Source: Chthonomonadales bacterium (GTDB lineage: Bacteria > Armatimonadota > Chthonomonadetes > Chthonomonadales > CAJBBX01). From it: a stretch of 64,000 bases of DNA. The stretch lies in the NCBI GenBank assembly GCA_012517255.1, contig JAAYVH010000044.1:2295-66294 (forward strand), given 5' to 3'. A program made the translations under genes and the position numbers. This document shows positions 4,227 through 48,364 of this stretch, piece by piece; the first letter of the stretch is position 1, and every line of letters starts with the position of its first letter. The notes under the pieces are model-generated. The model was not told the DNA's origin, searched no databases, and saw only the letters and a list, made by a program, of their open reading frames with translations.

Positions 4227-5462
4227 CTACTGCTCGGCTACCACCTTCTCGACTTCGGCGCGGAACCTGGCATGCAGGGGCTCGCTAAAGCCGATGCTCA
4301 TGCCGCGCACGATGCCCTTGCGGTCGATGAGGACGTAGTGGGGTATGCCTCCGACGCCGTAGTTGTCCTGGTTGGTGCGATCGCCGAAGACAACCGGCCA
4401 GGGGATCTCGAACTCCTTGAGGTGCTCGGCGTATTTCTCGAACTCCTGATCGGGGGTCAGGTTGCGCTCGGTCTTATAGTAGCCGTAGTAGGTGGTCACC
4501 TCGACGATCTCGAGACCCTTGGGCTTCAGATCGGCGAGCATCTTCTTCATCGAGGGATAGCCGAGCTTGCAGAAGCCGCACCAGTGGGCGCCAAAGTCGA
4601 GGACAACCACCTTGCCGCGCAAGGCTTGCAGGCTCTCGAACGGGCCGTAGCCGCGCTCTTTCTTGATTTCGGGGGCAGGGGAACCGATGAGTTTGGCCTG
4701 GGTTAGCTTGCCGCTGAGCTGGCGGGCCAGACGGTTGTCGGGGCCGAGCTTCGCCATACCGTCCTCGAGAGCCTTGAGCGCGCCGGCGTTGTCCCCCTTG
4801 GCGGTCAGGATCTCGTTGCGGCCGAGGGCGAGCTGCACGATGGCTGAGTCCGCAGCGCCCTTATCCTGCTCGGAGGTCATCTTGTCGAACGGAATCTTCG
4901 CTTCGAGCTTGGCCAGCAAGTCCAGCGCCGCCTGTGGCCCTAGCTGTTCGGCGACGGTATCCGCGTAGGTCTGAGCTGCCGCCGCGGCGAGGAACGCCGC
5001 GGTTCTGTTGTCCGGCGGCTGCATCTCAAGAAGCAATCCGATGAGCCCCTGCGCGTCTTTGCTCGCCTGCATTCCGGCCAGCACCATCTGCTGGGCCGAG
5101 TACTTCAGGCGCGGTTCCGGGTTCGTCGTAAGGAACTTGCGGGCGGCTGCGCCGGCATCTTTCGACATGCCGGCGGCCTGATAGAGCTGGGCCAGCGCGT
5201 AGCACCGAGGCGCCTCGACAGAATCCAGACTGACGCCGGCTACCGCATCCTTGGCCCGCCTGGTTCTTTCGGTCATCAACGCGCGGAAATCGGGCGTCTT
5301 GTTCGCGTCGCGCGCCTTCTGGATCTCGCCCGCGTACCAGGTGTTGAGCTCCTTGAGCGCGGCTTCCGGATCTGGCGCCGACAGCGCCCGGGAGCCCACA
5401 GACAGCAGAAGTACCGCGCCCAGGGCGTAGACCGCCCGCAGCGCCGTGCCGGAGTATCGCAT
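4227..5462 (-). CDS. Secreted helical/TPR-like domain fused to a TlpA-like thioredoxin domain
   Basis: ORF track 4227..5462 (411 aa). Signal peptide MRYSGTALRAVYALGAVLLLSVGSRALSA. C-terminal thioredoxin fold with a WCGFC active site (VVVLDFGAHWCGFCKLGYP). Confidence 0.7.
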   Translation of the reverse strand: MRYSGTALRAVYALGAVLLLSVGSRALSAPDPEAALKELNTWYAGEIQKARDANKTPDFRALMTERTRRAKDAVAGVSLDSVEAPRCYALAQLYQAAGMSKDAGAAARKFLTTNPEPRLKYSAQQMVLAGMQASKDAQGLIGLLLEMQPPDNRTAAFLAAAAAQTYADTVAEQLGPQAALDLLAKLEAKIPFDKMTSEQDKGAADSAIVQLALGRNEILTAKGDNAGALKALEDGMAKLGPDNRLARQLSGKLTQAKLIGSPAPEIKKERGYGPFESLQALRGKVVVLDFGAHWCGFCKLGYPSMKKMLADLKPKGLEIVEVTTYYGYYKTERNLTPDQEFEKYAEHLKEFEIPWPVVFGDRTNQDNYGVGGIPHYVLIDRKGIVRGMSIGFSEPLHARFRAEVEKVVAEQ

Positions 5463-5616
5463 GGGTCACCTCATGTGTTGGAGGATGGATTGGTAGGTAC
5501 TACGAGTACCTTGACGTTTCCTGTGCCCGTCGGTAACCGCCCCGTACCATACCATACGAGAGAGTACCCCGACCGATGGCCACGCCCTGCGGCAGCCATC
5601 CGTGACACCTGCTTGC

Positions 5617-6177
5617 TCAGGCGGAAGGGATCTCGCGCGGGGCTATGATGATGCGACGGTCCGGTTCTTCGCCTTCGCTGTACGTCATCACGTCGGGATC
5701 TTCGCTGAGAAGCTTATGAATGATCCGGCGCTCGTGGGGCGGCAGCGAGTCGATTTCGCACTCTTCGCCGCGCGCTTTGACCTCGGCCGCATACTCGCGA
5801 GCGAGATCGGTCAGCATCTTGAGGCGCCGCTCGCGATAGCCGCCTGCATCGAGCAGGACCCGGACCCCCGGCCCGAGCTTGCGCGAGATGATGAGGTTCG
5901 CCACGAACTGGAGCGCGTCCAGCATCCTGCCATGCTCGCCGAAGATTCTCTCGGCATCCTCGCCAATGAGCTCGATCTTGAGATAACTGCCTTCGACGCC
6001 GCGCACTTCCGGGCGCATGTCGAGCCCGCTAACCTCACAGAGCTCTCGTATGCTTTCGACCGCCGCGAGATCGCGGTCATCAGGCTCGGCCTGCACCTCC
6101 GGCTCCTCGGCGTGGTCTTGTTCCACCTCGTCGGGCCGGAGCTCGGGATCCGGAGCTGTTGCCTTACGCATGGGCAT
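5617..6177 (-). CDS. jag: Jag/KhpB RNA-binding protein (KH + R3H domains)
   Basis: ORF track 5617..6177 (186 aa). C-terminal R3H motif LPPHERRIIHKLLSEDPDVMTYSEGEEPDRRIII. It lies immediately downstream of yidC, as in the conserved yidC-jag pair. Confidence 0.8.
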   Translation of the reverse strand: MPMRKATAPDPELRPDEVEQDHAEEPEVQAEPDDRDLAAVESIRELCEVSGLDMRPEVRGVEGSYLKIELIGEDAERIFGEHGRMLDALQFVANLIISRKLGPGVRVLLDAGGYRERRLKMLTDLAREYAAEVKARGEECEIDSLPPHERRIIHKLLSEDPDVMTYSEGEEPDRRIIIAPREIPSA

Positions 6178-14160: not shown

Positions 14161-15315
14161 ATGGCAGAGACAGAGCCCCTGACTCCCGGTGAGATTGCCG
14201 ACATACTGGCCGGTCTGGAGGACGCGCCGGTGCCCGAGCGAATGGCGCGGCGCGCAGTGAACCGCTGGATCGAGGAGTCGCGCCGCGAGCGTCCGCGGGG
14301 CCGATGGGCAACCGTGCTGAGCTTCCCCGGACTCCGACCGGCGCTGGCCCTGGCAGCCGCAGCGGCGCTGGTGGTGGTGATCCGCGGTCGCCTCGGCGAC
14401 GAGGCGGCTCCGCCCATACAAACCCCAAAGGCAGCCGAACGCGCTGAAAGGGCGGACGCGCCCACTCTACAGAACACCACGGCGCAGAAGGCGCAAGGCG
14501 AGAAGCGTGAGGCGAGAGGCAAGCGGCTAGAGGAGAGGGCTGAGGCGAAGGGGGCAGCCGGTCCGGGACGAGCGGCCACCGCCGGAAGCGCGCCTGCTCC
14601 GCCTGCCGCCGGTTTCGCCGACAGGCCGGCGGCGCCGTTAGCTGAGCGGGATGTTGCGCCGCCTGCACGGAAGGTGCAGGCTCCCGAGTCGGCCCCTGTG
14701 CCTGCGGTGAGCGAGAGAATGGCGCTCAGGGCAGCCCGGACGCCGGAAGCCCCAAGCGCTGACGTTGCCTATCTCAATCGTACCGAACCGCTCAGCCGCG
14801 ATCTCGTCAAGGACTCCTCCGTGGGCGACGCGCGTCTCCTGCAGAGGATCACACTGGCCGAGGACGAGATCGCTCTGGCGGATCTCGCCGGCAAGATCGG
14901 CGCAACCACGGGCGTCGCCATCGTTCTATCGGAGGCAATCGCCACCGAGCCCCTGGCGGTCCATTGCGAGGATAGGCCGTTGCGCGAGGTGATGCGCCAG
15001 ATGGGACGCGCGCTGGGCATCCGCTGGGAGCTGTCACATCAGGGCGACGCAATCCGCTATGCCGCACGACCGATCGCCGAAGCCGAGGAGACGCGCGCCT
15101 CGGACGATTCCGCCGCCCGATCGGCGCCGGCGGGTCTCGGCGGGGGAATGATGCGCGCGGGCCGGGCCCCGGCGGCCATGCAGGCCGACAGCAGTAAGAG
15201 ACGCGACGTCGAAACACGCAACATCATAGGCTCGCCCGAACGCGTCCGGGCTCTGCGTCAGGGGGTCGCGCCTCCGGACGCCGTACAGACCGAAGGTTGG
15301 ATCATCGTTCGATAG
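14161..15315 (+). CDS. Putative membrane-spanning anti-sigma factor
   Basis: ORF track 14074..15315, with the start trimmed to the ATG at 14161, 1 nt after the sigma-factor stop. Short cytoplasmic N-terminus, one TM segment (ALALAAAAALVVVI), an Ala/Pro-rich linker and a folded C-terminal domain. Function inferred from position only. Confidence 0.5.
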   Translation: MAETEPLTPGEIADILAGLEDAPVPERMARRAVNRWIEESRRERPRGRWATVLSFPGLRPALALAAAAALVVVIRGRLGDEAAPPIQTPKAAERAERADAPTLQNTTAQKAQGEKREARGKRLEERAEAKGAAGPGRAATAGSAPAPPAAGFADRPAAPLAERDVAPPARKVQAPESAPVPAVSERMALRAARTPEAPSADVAYLNRTEPLSRDLVKDSSVGDARLLQRITLAEDEIALADLAGKIGATTGVAIVLSEAIATEPLAVHCEDRPLREVMRQMGRALGIRWELSHQGDAIRYAARPIAEAEETRASDDSAARSAPAGLGGGMMRAGRAPAAMQADSSKRRDVETRNIIGSPERVRALRQGVAPPDAVQTEGWIIVR

Positions 15316-45063: not shown

Positions 45064-45755
45064 TTCGCTTTCGGCTTGACGGCCGGTTTCTGAGTCTGGG
45101 GTTTGGCCGGCGCCGGCGGGGCTTCGGCGGTCTTGCTCATGCCGAGCATCATCAACTGCATCAGGTCGAGGCCGCCTTCGCCGCCCTCGGCGAGCTCCTT
45201 TTGCAGGTCGAACGGACGCACGCCCGACAGCGTCTGGATCGCTCGGACGTTGATGAGCGTGAGCGAGGCGACTGTGTCCTCGGTCCACTTGCTGCCGCCG
45301 AACAGCGCCGCCATATCGGGCTCCTTGCCGCTCTGCTCGGCCTCCATGATCATCTGCAAGAGGTTCGGCGACTTCTGCTCAACGGCGTATGCGACGAGGA
45401 AGGTCTCGGAGCCGATGGCGAGCGTCTGTCCCTGCGTGAAGCACGTTCGCTGCGGACCTCCGCCCATGCCGCCGAGCATCGAGAGGCCAAGGGCAGCTTC
45501 CATGCCGTCGCCCTTCATCTTGCCGCCGTCGGCCATCATGCCGATCTGGGCAAGCTTCGACAGCATGTCGCCGGTCCCGGCAGCGCCGGCGTCGGACTGT
45601 TTCACCGACACCCGGAGCCAGGCCGCATTGAACTGCTTGAGCTGCATCGTATGGGGCGTCCTGGCGAGCAACGTCGCGAGCGGGTTGGGCTCCTGTGCCA
45701 GGGCTTGCGGCATACAGACGGCGATCAGAGCGACCGCCAGTAGTGATCGTGTCAT
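45060..45755 (-). CDS. Secreted Met-rich hypothetical protein
   Basis: ORF track 45060..45836, with the ATG at 45755 (GGGAGAA RBS). Signal peptide MTRSLLAVALIAVCMPQALA. Met-rich stretches (IGMMADGGKMKGDGM, LSMLGGMGGG, LMQLMMLGMS). Lys/Pro-rich tail. Confidence 0.45.
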   Translation of the reverse strand: MTRSLLAVALIAVCMPQALAQEPNPLATLLARTPHTMQLKQFNAAWLRVSVKQSDAGAAGTGDMLSKLAQIGMMADGGKMKGDGMEAALGLSMLGGMGGGPQRTCFTQGQTLAIGSETFLVAYAVEQKSPNLLQMIMEAEQSGKEPDMAALFGGSKWTEDTVASLTLINVRAIQTLSGVRPFDLQKELAEGGEGGLDLMQLMMLGMSKTAEAPPAPAKPQTQKPAVKPKAK

Positions 45756-45789
45756 GGTTTCTCCCTGTTGGATGGATGATGGACGTCGG

Positions 45790-47508
45790 TCAGCCGAGCT
45801 TCGGCCAGCCGCCGGGCGTTCCCATGGCGCGCTCAAACACGTGGCCGACCCGCAGGATGGCGTCCTCGCGATAGAGCTGGCCTGTGAACTCGATCATGAT
45901 CGGTTTGCGACCGTCCATGCCGGCGCGCGTGATGAGCGTCGGATGCCCGGTAAGGTTGGTGAGAACGAGCGTCGCATAGGGCGGCGTTACGTAGCAGTCG
46001 AAGTCCGCCATGGCCGCCGCCATCTCTCGTTGAAGCTGAGCTCGAAGCTGCATCATGGCTATGTAGTCCACGCCGGCAACCGTCGTGCCGACGCGGAAGA
46101 TGTTGGGCCAGTTGTTGGGGCCTTGCTGAGCCAGGTCGGCCAGCTTGCCTTGCGCGATCAGCGAGGCGAACGAAGCGGCGCCCTCCACATCAATCACGTT
46201 GGTCAGTTCGGCATAGGCTCCCGCCATGCTGGGAAGCCGGATGGGCTTCAGTTCCGCTCCGGCTTTGCGCAGCACGTCGAGCGCACGGTCGTAGACCGCC
46301 CTGGCCGCTTCGTCCTTCTGAGCGGCAAACCCGGCCTCATCCAGACCGATCTTCAGACCCGCGAGGCCTTTCGCCGGTTCCCACGAGAATGGCACGGGCC
46401 GCACGGTCATGTCCGCGCCGTCTGGCCCTGCGATGGCATGGAGCACGAGCGCGCAGTCTTCGACGGAGCGCGTGATGGGCCCGATCTTGTCCATGGTCCA
46501 CGAAAGGGCCATGGCGCCCGTGCGCGGCACGCGGCCGTAGGTGGGGCGCAGACCGGTCGTGCCGTTGCGCACGCACGGGCTGACAATGCTTCCGAGCGTC
46601 TCGGTGCCAATGGAAAAGCCGACAAGCCCTGCTGCAGTGGCCGCTCCGGGCCCGGCAGAGGAGCCGCTCGATCCCTGGGTCAGATCCCACGGGCAACGCG
46701 TCATGCCGCGAAACCACACGTCGCCCATGGCCAGCTCACCGAGGCTGAGTTTCGCCACAAGCACCGCGCCGGCCCGCTCGAGCCGTTGCACAACAGTGGC
46801 ATCGGTCGGCGGAATCTGATCCTCATAGGGCTTCGCGCCGAATGTCGTTCGGATGCCCTTTGTGAACAGCAGATCCTTGGCGCCCCACGGCACGCCATGC
46901 AGCGGGCCTCGCCATCGCCCGGCGGCTATCTCGCGATCGGCCTGTTCGGCCTGACGCATGGCCAGCTCCTCCGTGAGCGTAACGACGCACAGAAGCTGCG
47001 GGTCGAACATTCGGAGCCGCTGAAGGTACATCTGCGTGAGCTCGACGCTGGTTACCCTGCGCGCGCGGAGCATGGCCGACAGCACGCTCACGGGCTGAAA
47101 GGCCAGGCTGTCGGGATCAATGGCATCGGCCGGCGCCACGGGCTTTGTCGGTCGAAACGCCGACCTGCCGGAAGGCAGAGGCACGCCGGGCACCCACGGG
47201 TCAAACCGGATCGCAGGCTCCGCGCCCTGCGGGATCGCAGCCATGCGAACCTGACGCATGGCGCGTCGCATCTCGCGTACGCTCGGCAGCATCAGCGCGC
47301 GTTCTGCCTCGGAGTAGGCCCTATCCGTAACCCTCAGCGCGGCTCCCAGATCCGCTTCCGTTATCGCGTCGGCATCTTGCGCTGTTGTCGGTTCCGATGC
47401 CAGCGTCACCACGCATGCCGCTGCAGCGGCCCTGAGCGCCGCACGCCTGCCGACGCGGCCGCCAGTCGGGCTATCGCCACGGTCCATCCCGCCCCTCTCC
47501 CCATTCAT
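45790..47508 (-). CDS. Amidase-signature family enzyme with a Tat-type signal peptide
   Basis: ORF track 45790..47508 (572 aa). Twin-arginine region GRRAALRAAAAA. Amidase signature GSSGSSAGPGAATAAG. The alternative start at 47487 has a better GGAG spacing. Confidence 0.8.
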   Translation of the reverse strand: MNGERGGMDRGDSPTGGRVGRRAALRAAAAACVVTLASEPTTAQDADAITEADLGAALRVTDRAYSEAERALMLPSVREMRRAMRQVRMAAIPQGAEPAIRFDPWVPGVPLPSGRSAFRPTKPVAPADAIDPDSLAFQPVSVLSAMLRARRVTSVELTQMYLQRLRMFDPQLLCVVTLTEELAMRQAEQADREIAAGRWRGPLHGVPWGAKDLLFTKGIRTTFGAKPYEDQIPPTDATVVQRLERAGAVLVAKLSLGELAMGDVWFRGMTRCPWDLTQGSSGSSAGPGAATAAGLVGFSIGTETLGSIVSPCVRNGTTGLRPTYGRVPRTGAMALSWTMDKIGPITRSVEDCALVLHAIAGPDGADMTVRPVPFSWEPAKGLAGLKIGLDEAGFAAQKDEAARAVYDRALDVLRKAGAELKPIRLPSMAGAYAELTNVIDVEGAASFASLIAQGKLADLAQQGPNNWPNIFRVGTTVAGVDYIAMMQLRAQLQREMAAAMADFDCYVTPPYATLVLTNLTGHPTLITRAGMDGRKPIMIEFTGQLYREDAILRVGHVFERAMGTPGGWPKLG

Positions 47509-47521
47509 ATGCGTTGTCTTG

Positions 47522-47632
47522 CCTCAGCCTTCAGCCTTCACCCTTCACCCTTCGCCCTTCAGCCTTCAGCCTTCGCCCTTCAGCCTTCACCCTTCGCCCT
47601 TCACCCTTCAGCCTTCGCCCTTCGCCCTTCAC
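47522..47632. repeat. Tandem heptanucleotide array, 15 x CCTTCNN (NN = AG, AC or GC) plus one degenerate unit
   Basis: Units fall at 47528, 47535, ... 47626 with strict 7-nt phasing: CCTTCAG x6, CCTTCAC x5, CCTTCGC x5 including boundaries as read. They are preceded by CCTCAG at 47522. The array fills the spacer between the stop at 47636 and the start at 47508, both of minus-strand genes. Confidence 0.9.
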
Positions 47633-47635
47633 CCC

Positions 47636-48364
47636 CTAACGCCTCTCAATGACGAGCTTCTGCGCGGCCATCGTGTAGCGAATCATCTCACCCGTGGCCT
47701 TCGACAGATGGAGTCGGGCCTGTATGGGAGCCACATCGCACACGACGCACTCCACCTTCTTGCCGCCGACGGTGATCGTTTCTGTGGTCGGCTGGGCCGC
47801 GAAGGTGATATCGAGACTGCGCATCATCTCCACCGCAAAGAGCGGCGCTTTGACCGTCTTTCCGGGCTGGATGTTCAGGGCGCGCGTTGCTATGGACATG
47901 AGCGTCATCACGTTGTTGATCGAGAGGAACTCCTTGCCGCTTATTGCGGCGTCACGGTTCATCGTCTGGCCGCCAGCCTGCGCCGTGATCTTCGCCTTGC
48001 CGCCTCCGAAAGAGCCGGTCAGTTTCTGGGCCTGGCCGTTGACGTCGGCATTCAGCGTCACCGCGGTCGGATGTCCGCTGTCGTTGACCGTGAAGGTTCC
48101 GTTCATCGTGAGGTTGACCTGCTGACCCTGAACCGGCAGAGCGAGCTTCAGGTTGTACTTCCAGTCGAAGAGCTGCTGCTTGCCGGATCCGGCACGAACG
48201 GCGGTGCAGGCGGCGTCCATGGCGCCAACCGACTTGCCGTCCATGGCGAATGACCACTTTTCGGTGTCGCCGACTTTGAATGCGAGGGGTTTCTGGGCCC
48301 ATGCCGGCGCTGAGCAAACGGCAAGCGCCATCACGGCCATCGGCATACGTCGCAGTGCGATCAT
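47636..48364 (-). CDS. Secreted hypothetical protein (beta-rich)
   Basis: ORF track 47636..48364 (242 aa). Signal peptide MIALRRMPMAVMALAVCSAPAWA. No recognisable motifs. Confidence 0.5.
   Translation of the reverse strand: MIALRRMPMAVMALAVCSAPAWAQKPLAFKVGDTEKWSFAMDGKSVGAMDAACTAVRAGSGKQQLFDWKYNLKLALPVQGQQVNLTMNGTFTVNDSGHPTAVTLNADVNGQAQKLTGSFGGGKAKITAQAGGQTMNRDAAISGKEFLSINNVMTLMSIATRALNIQPGKTVKAPLFAVEMMRSLDITFAAQPTTETITVGGKKVECVVCDVAPIQARLHLSKATGEMIRYTMAAQKLVIERR

Follow-up and report, generated by a model that had tools for sequence, protein, structure and literature searches.

Heptameric short tandemly repeated repetitive sequences (STRRs) were reportedly described from the cyanobacteria Calothrix and Nostoc by Mazel and colleagues in 1990. 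The classical STRR units are CCCCAGT, TTGGTCA, and CAACAGT, and STRRs are defined as dispersed multi-copy families. Here we analyze an array of fifteen heptamers that lies between two co-directional genes in a 64,000-nt stretch of DNA (the window) from the metagenome-assembled genome of an uncultured, soil-type Chthonomonadales bacterium of the phylum Armatimonadota (assembly GCA_012517255.1, contig JAAYVH010000044.1, positions 2,295 to 66,294). A preliminary description of this DNA had likened the array to cyanobacterial heptameric STRRs of different sequence, and the likeness holds in kind, with a unit that reads SYGAAGG on the transcribed strand. The array is one of the bacterial intergenic heptamer repeats, a class that has been described before but whose function is unexplained, and it is probably a slippage-maintained intergenic heptanucleotide simple-sequence repeat (a "long SSR") that is near-neutral for sequence-specific regulation. 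Its turnover is far faster than that of its flanks and occurs almost solely by swaps of whole unit types.

Among long SSRs, heptamers are more frequent than expected, above all in large, GC-rich genomes, according to the work of Mrazek (2007) as summarized in Rehm et al. (2015; PMC4692102). In Xanthomonas and Nostoc, arrays of GGGAATC or GGGGA(C/T)T (GGGNATC) lie between co-directional open reading frames (ORFs), are transcribed, and recur between the same genes in related species, with extensive variation in length and sequence (PMC4692102). The GGGNATC arrays show no association with phase-variable gene classes, and no function has been assigned to them (PMC4692102). TAACTGA repeats of marine Beggiatoaceae, cyanobacteria, and Bacteroidetes are located just upstream of start codons, and S1, Csp, or CsrA-type proteins have been speculated to bind them (MacGregor, 2015; PMC4679880). 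In a preprint on Nostoc, heptamer repeats close to the recF and recO promoters are reported to change reporter output modestly, and no mechanism is given. Classical SSR contingency loci of Haemophilus and Neisseria have units of 1-5 nt in promoters, elements of the 5' untranslated region (UTR), or 5' coding regions, and the heptamers of neuO are coding (PMC12721329). We found no report of intergenic heptamer repeats in Armatimonadota in the literature searched.

The array and its variation

The array and the two genes next to it are read from the minus strand, in the following order of transcription.

47636-48364, minus strand: upstream gene, encoding a 242-aa protein with a signal-peptide-like N-terminus
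47633-47638, minus strand: junction TAGGGG, made of the stop codon TAG (47638-47636) of the upstream gene and GGG
47528-47632, minus strand: perfect array of 15 phased heptamers, which read CCTTC(A/G)(G/C) on the plus strand and (G/C)(T/C)GAAGG on the transcribed strand
47522-47527, minus strand: decayed terminal unit at the 3' end of the array, CCTCAG on the plus strand and CTGAGG as transcribed, 6 nt long with one base deleted
47488-47521, minus strand: rest of the spacer, unique and non-repetitive, which separates the array from the amidase start and holds the Shine-Dalgarno site GGGGAGAGGGG (47502-47492)
45790-47487, minus strand: downstream gene, encoding an enzyme of the amidase signature family (PF01425), which has 565 aa if translation begins at the ATG of 47487; 47508 is the position of an alternative ATG

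The 15 exactly phased heptamers and one degenerate unit reported in the preliminary description are confirmed by direct reading, by Tandem Repeats Finder, and by a shuffle test, and the restriction to three unit types is confirmed as well. The 15 units are all CCTTCAG, CCTTCAC, or CCTTCGC on the plus strand, corresponding to CTGAAGG, GTGAAGG, and GCGAAGG on the transcribed strand, and the last three letters of the successive plus-strand units are CAG CAC CAC CGC CAG CAG CGC CAG CAC CGC CAC CAG CGC CGC CAC. On the transcribed strand, the junction reads CGT TAG GGG, followed by GTGAAGG GCGAAGG GCGAAGG CTGAAGG and further units up to CTGAAGG CTGAGG, and then by CAAGACAACGCATATGAATGGGGAGAGGGGCGGG and ATG. 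The 5' boundary of the array is therefore 4 nt past the TAG of the 242-aa gene, and the 3' boundary is 40 nt ahead of the ATG at 47487. Iteration of 7-nt units is strictly head to tail, with 15 perfect units and the decayed one. Tandem Repeats Finder reports a period of 7 with 15.9 copies and a score of 145, and a period of 21 with a slightly better score of 166. A probe of three units, run with up to 2 mismatches permitted, gives 14 matches in the array and none elsewhere in the window, against 0.15 expected by chance from dinucleotide shuffles, and only one CCTTCNN array is present within the 64 kb. A second period-7 match of Tandem Repeats Finder, at 14496-14548, is a charged stretch of low complexity in an ORF that follows a gene resembling those of extracytoplasmic function sigma factors, and we rejected it as a further array.

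We compared the array with its copies in three further contigs, L002 (a MEGAHIT contig from the European Nucleotide Archive), L126 (a JGI contig), and L001 (a Logan contig). Over 13 kb, L002 and the window agree at 99.95% identity, and the arrays of the two do not differ. L001 shares the first 11 units without change and stops within the repeat. L126 has the array with 15 units and the same decayed unit, in a different internal order. The preliminary description had allowed for an assembly artefact, and short-read assemblers can indeed mis-build low-complexity repeats, a concern to which the contig that stops within the array might seem to add. However, the array was recovered with identical flanks in the window and L002, with a variant order in L126, and with 11 units in L001. 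Because it is found in four independent assemblies (the last in part), it is not an assembly artefact, and we give an artefact of assembly or sequencing almost no credence.

The comparison with L126 shows how the array changes. Over 5.7 kb, L126 and the window have 99.0% identity and 58 differences, and eight of these fall in the 111-nt array (7.2% vs 0.9% in the flanks), which is an 8-fold excess (Poisson P = 1e-5). Seven of the eight affect one or other of the unit's two variable positions, the pattern that slippage or conversion would leave by shuffling whole units. The decayed unit corresponding to 47522-47527 is kept. These differences support the view that the array is mutable in the manner expected of slipped-strand or recombinational repeats. 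The copy number is 15 in all three full-length copies (window, L002, and L126), a strain-level sample of n = 3 in which equal copy number is not statistically assessable. A metagenome scan with the 242-aa protein added one locus only, that of L126.

More distant relatives carry amidase orthologues with 82-84% aa identity and about 77-80% DNA identity, and the gene order is the same wherever the contig reaches the upstream gene. Their spacers differ as follows.

L123 (3917-3975), L131 (150-215), and L132: about 7-8 ATCTGAN units in an array that begins 1 nt past the stop codon
L128 (1-40) and L129 (1-105): at least 14 AT(C/T)TGAG units; the contigs begin inside the array
L127 (75-140): decayed period-7 remnant, AGATTNN
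L124 (3904-3932): no array, with the same two genes about 29 nt apart

Variation among relatives at this spacer thus comprises the changed order in L126 and, at about 80% identity, a unit family that is replaced, decayed, or absent. A period-7 array has persisted at the junction while the sequence of its unit was replaced. Because the junction of L124 is only 29 nt, the two genes form an operon, and because L124 lacks the array, the array is dispensable. The arrays of the relatives have mean anti-Shine-Dalgarno energies of -1.4 to -3.8 kcal/mol, G4Hunter scores of about 0, and a purine content of 47-57%. Shine-Dalgarno-likeness, purine richness, and G-quadruplex potential are therefore confined to the lineage of the window, and no function conserved at the locus can rest on them.

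Other small repeats were seen in the relatives. In L127, a short heptamer array, TTTGAGA TTTCAGA TCTCAGA (1846-1875), starts at the amidase's own stop codon, so that an AGATYTN-type unit is present at two spacers. In L128, a 9-nt repeat, NNGTCCATC, occurs 3-4 times after the amidase stop (1775-1815). Small tandem repeats seem to be common in the spacers of this clade.

GAAGG-type arrays and stop codons in other phyla

We scanned one genome per species for five phased CCTTCNN units and obtained at least 120 loci (L003-L122) from many phyla. The groups and counts given here are those among the matches listed. Arrays were oriented on the purine strand, gene calls were crude and ORF-based, and an array was taken as abutting when at most 10 nt separate it from the stop codon of an ORF on the same strand that is 100 aa long or longer. 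The phyla and groups represented include filamentous cyanobacteria, Planctomycetota, Verrucomicrobiota, Acidobacteriota, Bacteroidota, Desulfobacterota, and others. The filamentous cyanobacteria have many CCTTCTT and CCTTCTG arrays, and CTGAAGG arrays, whose unit is shared with part of the array in the window, occur in metagenome-assembled genomes of Hydrogenedentales, Vicinamibacterales, Desulfobulbaceae, and Terriglobia.

The 5' boundary of the (NNGAAGG)n array abuts a same-strand stop codon in 49 of 72 cases, at a median distance of 4 nt, and the mirror arrangement is found in 3 of 54 (Fisher P = 1e-13). The array often overlaps the stop codon, as in gcaTAAGAAGG; examples are L012 (6114-6148), L051 (1273-1307), and L122 (350-405). 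The bias is retained with units that are free of stop triplets (17/28 vs 1/23, P = 2e-5). Many of the abutting ORFs are 400-1850 aa long and are therefore real genes. The 3' ends of the arrays are fuzzier than the 5' ends, and the decayed 3' unit in the window fits this. The array of the window and the arrays of its relatives follow the same rule of anchoring at the stop codon. This anchoring extends the pattern reported by Rehm et al. for GGGNATC repeats to a second unit family. Strand-specific anchoring had earlier been reported only for the GGGNATC repeats, and it is the one observation, across at least 120 genomes, that neutral slippage leaves unexplained.

Nine of these loci (L004, L006, L033, L042, L074, L079, L086, L098, and L116) are composite, with an unrelated second heptamer array directly 3' of the GAAGG array; the second heptamers include CCCAATG, CACCTAN, GCAAGAC, CCAACTC, TTCATCA, CGCCATT, and AACTCCT. 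The composite arrays hint at a specificity for the 7-nt period rather than for any one sequence. The chromosome of Zymobacter sp. (NZ_CP179930.1, L058) carries a very long array of about 62 units of the CAGAAGG and GCGAAGG types, at 5260-5692 of the locus. This is the complete genome of a cultured gammaproteobacterium, which could be a tractable model for GAAGG-type arrays.

A wider proposal is that sense-strand, stop-anchored heptamer arrays are functional 3'-UTR or intercistronic RNA elements across phyla, read in a 7-nt register by a conserved machine, and we think this rather unlikely. If it were true, the array of the window, the ATCTGAN arrays of its relatives, and the GGGNATC repeats would all be members, and the machine could be, for example, the post-termination ribosome or an RNA-binding protein with an oligonucleotide/oligosaccharide-binding (OB) fold. 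Period and position would then matter while the unit sequence drifts, and the persistence of arrays despite replacement of their sequence would be explained.

Explanations of the array

A near-neutral long SSR maintained by slippage would come about as follows. Slipped-strand mispairing or unequal exchange between units would create and homogenize the array, and exchange may include 3-unit (21-nt) blocks, which would account for the period-21 signal. The array would be transcribed within the polycistronic mRNA. Because its RNA is 80% purine and 10% C and is essentially unstructured, it would be a poor Rho substrate and tolerated in the operon; the predicted fold is a weak ladder of G-C and G-U pairs (z = -1.7), and the centroid structure is unpaired across the array. 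The main physical effect would be that a gene junction of about 30 nt is stretched to 148 nt, so that translation of the amidase would depend on its own Shine-Dalgarno site, not on coupling to the upstream gene. The spacer of 127 nt given in the preliminary description is correct if the ATG at 47508 is used, but public gene calls and the better Shine-Dalgarno site favor the ATG at 47487, which gives 148 nt. The Shine-Dalgarno site GGGGAGAGGGG of that start has an energy of -8.9 kcal/mol with the generic anti-Shine-Dalgarno sequence. We judge the Shine-Dalgarno-like and G-rich traits of the array to be by-products of the unit fixed in this lineage, and roles for standby ribosomes, a quadruplex, or a binding protein are possible only as lineage-specific additions.

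Several points weigh against neutrality, and a functional role keeps a low probability. A period-7 array persists in four of five related lineages at this spacer, and neutral persistence needs continuing homogenization; selection for "some heptamer array here" could also be at work. The two strains with different unit orders both keep 15 units, which could reflect a length constraint (n = 2). In addition, GAAGG-type arrays across phyla are anchored at sense-strand stop codons only (49/72 vs 3/54), and neutral slippage, which is blind to strand, does not predict this. Transcription through the array, its insensitivity to Rho, and the loss of translational coupling are also inferred steps.

The preliminary description had stressed GAAGG elements resembling Shine-Dalgarno sequences, and their affinity is real. 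Computed against a generic 16S 3' tail, from which the host's own tail may differ, 12-mers of the array average -6.0 kcal/mol, compared to -3.2 kcal/mol for the background. GAAGGGUGAAGG reaches -8.5 kcal/mol, equal to the amidase's own Shine-Dalgarno site, as do five registers in all, and the stop-codon junction UAGGGGGUGA (47629-47639, minus strand) is the strongest anti-Shine-Dalgarno match of the region at -15.2 kcal/mol; no start codon lies at a usable distance downstream of it. The array could accordingly be a post-termination or standby platform, in which evenly spaced GAAGG(G)UGA motifs would base-pair with the 3' end of the 16S rRNA and retain 30S subunits set free at the upstream stop codon, or bring in others; the captured subunits would feed the amidase start, or the transcript would be protected. 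The unstructured RNA suits such a platform, and the class-wide anchoring at sense-strand stop codons would fit a link to translation termination. On the other hand, the relatives' arrays are at background affinity, which does not support standby as a conserved role, and the amidase has its own well-placed Shine-Dalgarno site, with the array ending 40 nt upstream of the start. In the first gene-call classification, 64 arrays had genes called to either side, and 19 of them lie between convergent genes, with no downstream gene to feed. With a generic 16S tail assumed throughout, we regard the platform as doubtful. Another idea is a binding array for a single-strand nucleic-acid-binding protein that takes up about 7 nt per domain, on the mRNA or on a displaced DNA strand. 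It accords with the strict 7-nt phasing, with the invariant 5-nt core and two variable positions, with the conservation of the core between strains (7/8 changes are outside it), and with the recurrence of different heptamers at the same site and as composite arrays in other phyla, which hints at measuring in steps of 7 nt. MacGregor (2015; PMC4679880) also proposed S1, Csp, or CsrA-type binders for TAACTGA repeats. However, no candidate binder is encoded nearby, the unit is not conserved among the relatives, so that a sequence-specific binder would have to co-evolve, and whole-unit shuffling explains the conservation of the core equally well. We consider a binding array unlikely; the binder would be a cold-shock protein, an S1/OB-fold protein, or a ring-shaped regulator like TRAP or HutP. 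A CsrA-type sponge (a CsrA/RsmA-titrating RNA) is excluded by the lack of any GGA trinucleotide in the array, which also has no predicted hairpins and no Rfam match.

A G-quadruplex in RNA or non-template DNA, or an i-motif, could modulate transcription or translation where the two genes meet, a role that has been put forward for GGGNATC repeats. There are nine GGG tracts and one GGGGG, spaced 4 nt apart within clusters, the G4Hunter mean is 1.13 with a maximum of 1.72 (25-nt window), and the location just past the stop codon with G on the coding strand fits the pattern of Rehm et al. (PMC4692102). Against this, the array has no canonical motif of four G3 tracts with loops of up to 7 nt (G3N1-7 x4), quadruplex-aware folding predicts no quadruplex, composition-matched shuffles fold much better (-41 vs -25 kcal/mol), and the relatives' arrays score about 0. 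The quadruplex potential raised in the preliminary description is modest and is not supported as the point of the element, and we find such a role quite improbable. The suggestion of a contingency locus is not supported either. According to this explanation, slippage alters the copy number and thereby switches or tunes expression of the amidase; the repeat is hypermutable, as had been supposed, the neighboring proteins are exported, and the break of the short-read contig L001 inside the array could reflect heterogeneity. Yet that break is expected from k = 31 assembly of internal repeats, and all three full-length copies have 15 units. No promoter elements flank the array, and steps of 7 nt in an intercistronic spacer alter neither a reading frame nor -10/-35 spacing. 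Rehm et al. (PMC4692102) also saw no link of such repeats with phase-variable gene classes. Phase variation of the amidase is, in our estimation, very unlikely.

The array could also be coding, either through read-through that would lengthen the 242-aa protein by 34 codons (GVKGEGRRLKGEGRR and onward) or as a small repeat peptide on either strand. On the sense strand, two frames are full of TGA and the third is the frame of the upstream gene, which stays open for 34 codons beyond the TAG (GVKGEGRRLKGEGRRVKAEGRR and onward, 47536-47638, minus strand). Units 3, 6, 9, and 12 are all GCGAAGG, a regularity at every third unit with a chance of about 1%. Because every third unit is GCGAAGG, which contains no TGA, the frame is open past the TAG and the period-21 signal appears. 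In L126, by reading, the same frame shuts after 12 codons, and the every-third-unit pattern is absent. All three plus-strand frames are open through the array, not a single ORF as the preliminary description had it. Two plus-strand ORFs, 45103-47652 (849 aa) and 47519-48253 (244 aa), traverse the array antisense to the amidase gene and the 242-aa gene. We rejected the plus-strand ORFs as genes; they are artefacts of 65% GC and a stop-free CCTTCNN strand and are antisense to well-supported genes. Because unit order changes in L126, which closes the frame, and the units in the spacers of distant relatives are unrelated, the array is, on this comparison, non-coding and its location intergenic. 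The Shine-Dalgarno-like junction, moreover, has no start codon at a usable distance, and a coding function is highly improbable. The earlier conclusion that the array is non-coding is upheld through L126 and the relatives, but the argument from a unit length not divisible by 3 does not suffice by itself, since three units make 21 nt.

Operon setting and comparison with known repeats

The co-directional cluster, according to public gene calls on L002, comprises a Sde182-like hydrolase, the 242-aa protein, the amidase, a 231-aa protein, and GH43. From the L002 gene coordinates, the remaining spacers of the cluster are about 20-40 nt, compared to 148 nt for the one with the array. Sequence scans found no sigma-70-like promoter and no intrinsic terminator in or beside the array, and Rfam gave no match for the region at a relaxed threshold or for the whole window at the gathering threshold. 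The 242-aa protein has no Pfam or NCBIfam match, and its gene has syntenic orthologues in L123 and L124. The flanking genes had been described as a secreted hypothetical protein and an amidase with a twin-arginine translocation (Tat) signal. The signal-peptide-like N-terminus and PF01425 agree with this; the amidase N-terminus has the twin-arginine motif GRRAAL, but no Tat model matched it.

The PF07596 prepilin-like family is known mainly from Planctomycetes. Several prepilin-like proteins with N_methyl and SBP_bac_10 (PF07596) are encoded near the locus in this Chthonomonadales lineage (L002, 1-275; L125, 5915-9710), a noteworthy overlap in gene content with Planctomycetes.

The junction studied here offers a natural series at a single place in one operon, namely no array, a decayed array, AGATYTG-type arrays, a GAAGG-type array that is G-rich and resembles Shine-Dalgarno sequences, and two strain variants of equal length with different unit order. 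This series is a ready set of constructs for asking whether heptamer repeats act at all, a question that dates from 1990 for cyanobacteria and from 2007 for the over-representation across bacteria.

Among the known systems, the classical contingency loci share with the array a slippage-prone tandem repeat between genes, but the copy number of the array sets neither frame nor promoter spacing. The TAACTGA repeats, for which a post-transcriptional role was proposed (PMC4679880), are likewise sense-strand intergenic heptamers, with TGA within the unit as in CTGAAGG, GTGAAGG, and the relatives' ATCTGAN. However, TAACTGA sets consist of 2-6 copies that sit upstream of the start codon, within a few nucleotides of it, in place of a ribosome-binding site, whereas the array of the window adjoins the stop codon of the upstream gene, has its end 40 nt ahead of the ATG at 47487, and leaves a separate Shine-Dalgarno site GGGGAGAGGGG in place; it is not start-proximal. 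Like STRRs, the array is a tandem heptanucleotide array in non-coding DNA with a lineage-specific unit, but SYGAAGG is no described STRR heptamer and its host belongs to Chthonomonadales and not to cyanobacteria. Compared to the GGGNATC repeats, the array differs in its unit (SYGAAGG), in its phylum (Armatimonadota), in having 15 units rather than the preferred four, and in its interrupted G-tracts, which form no canonical four-tract quadruplex motif. It resembles them in its 7-nt head-to-tail units in an intergenic region between co-directional ORFs, with the G-rich coding strand at a distance of 0-50 bp to the stop codon or overlapping it (here 4 nt after the TAG, with both genes on the minus strand), and in keeping the same inter-gene position in relatives with variable length and sequence. 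Except for a demonstrable quadruplex, the array has every structural feature of the class described by Rehm et al.

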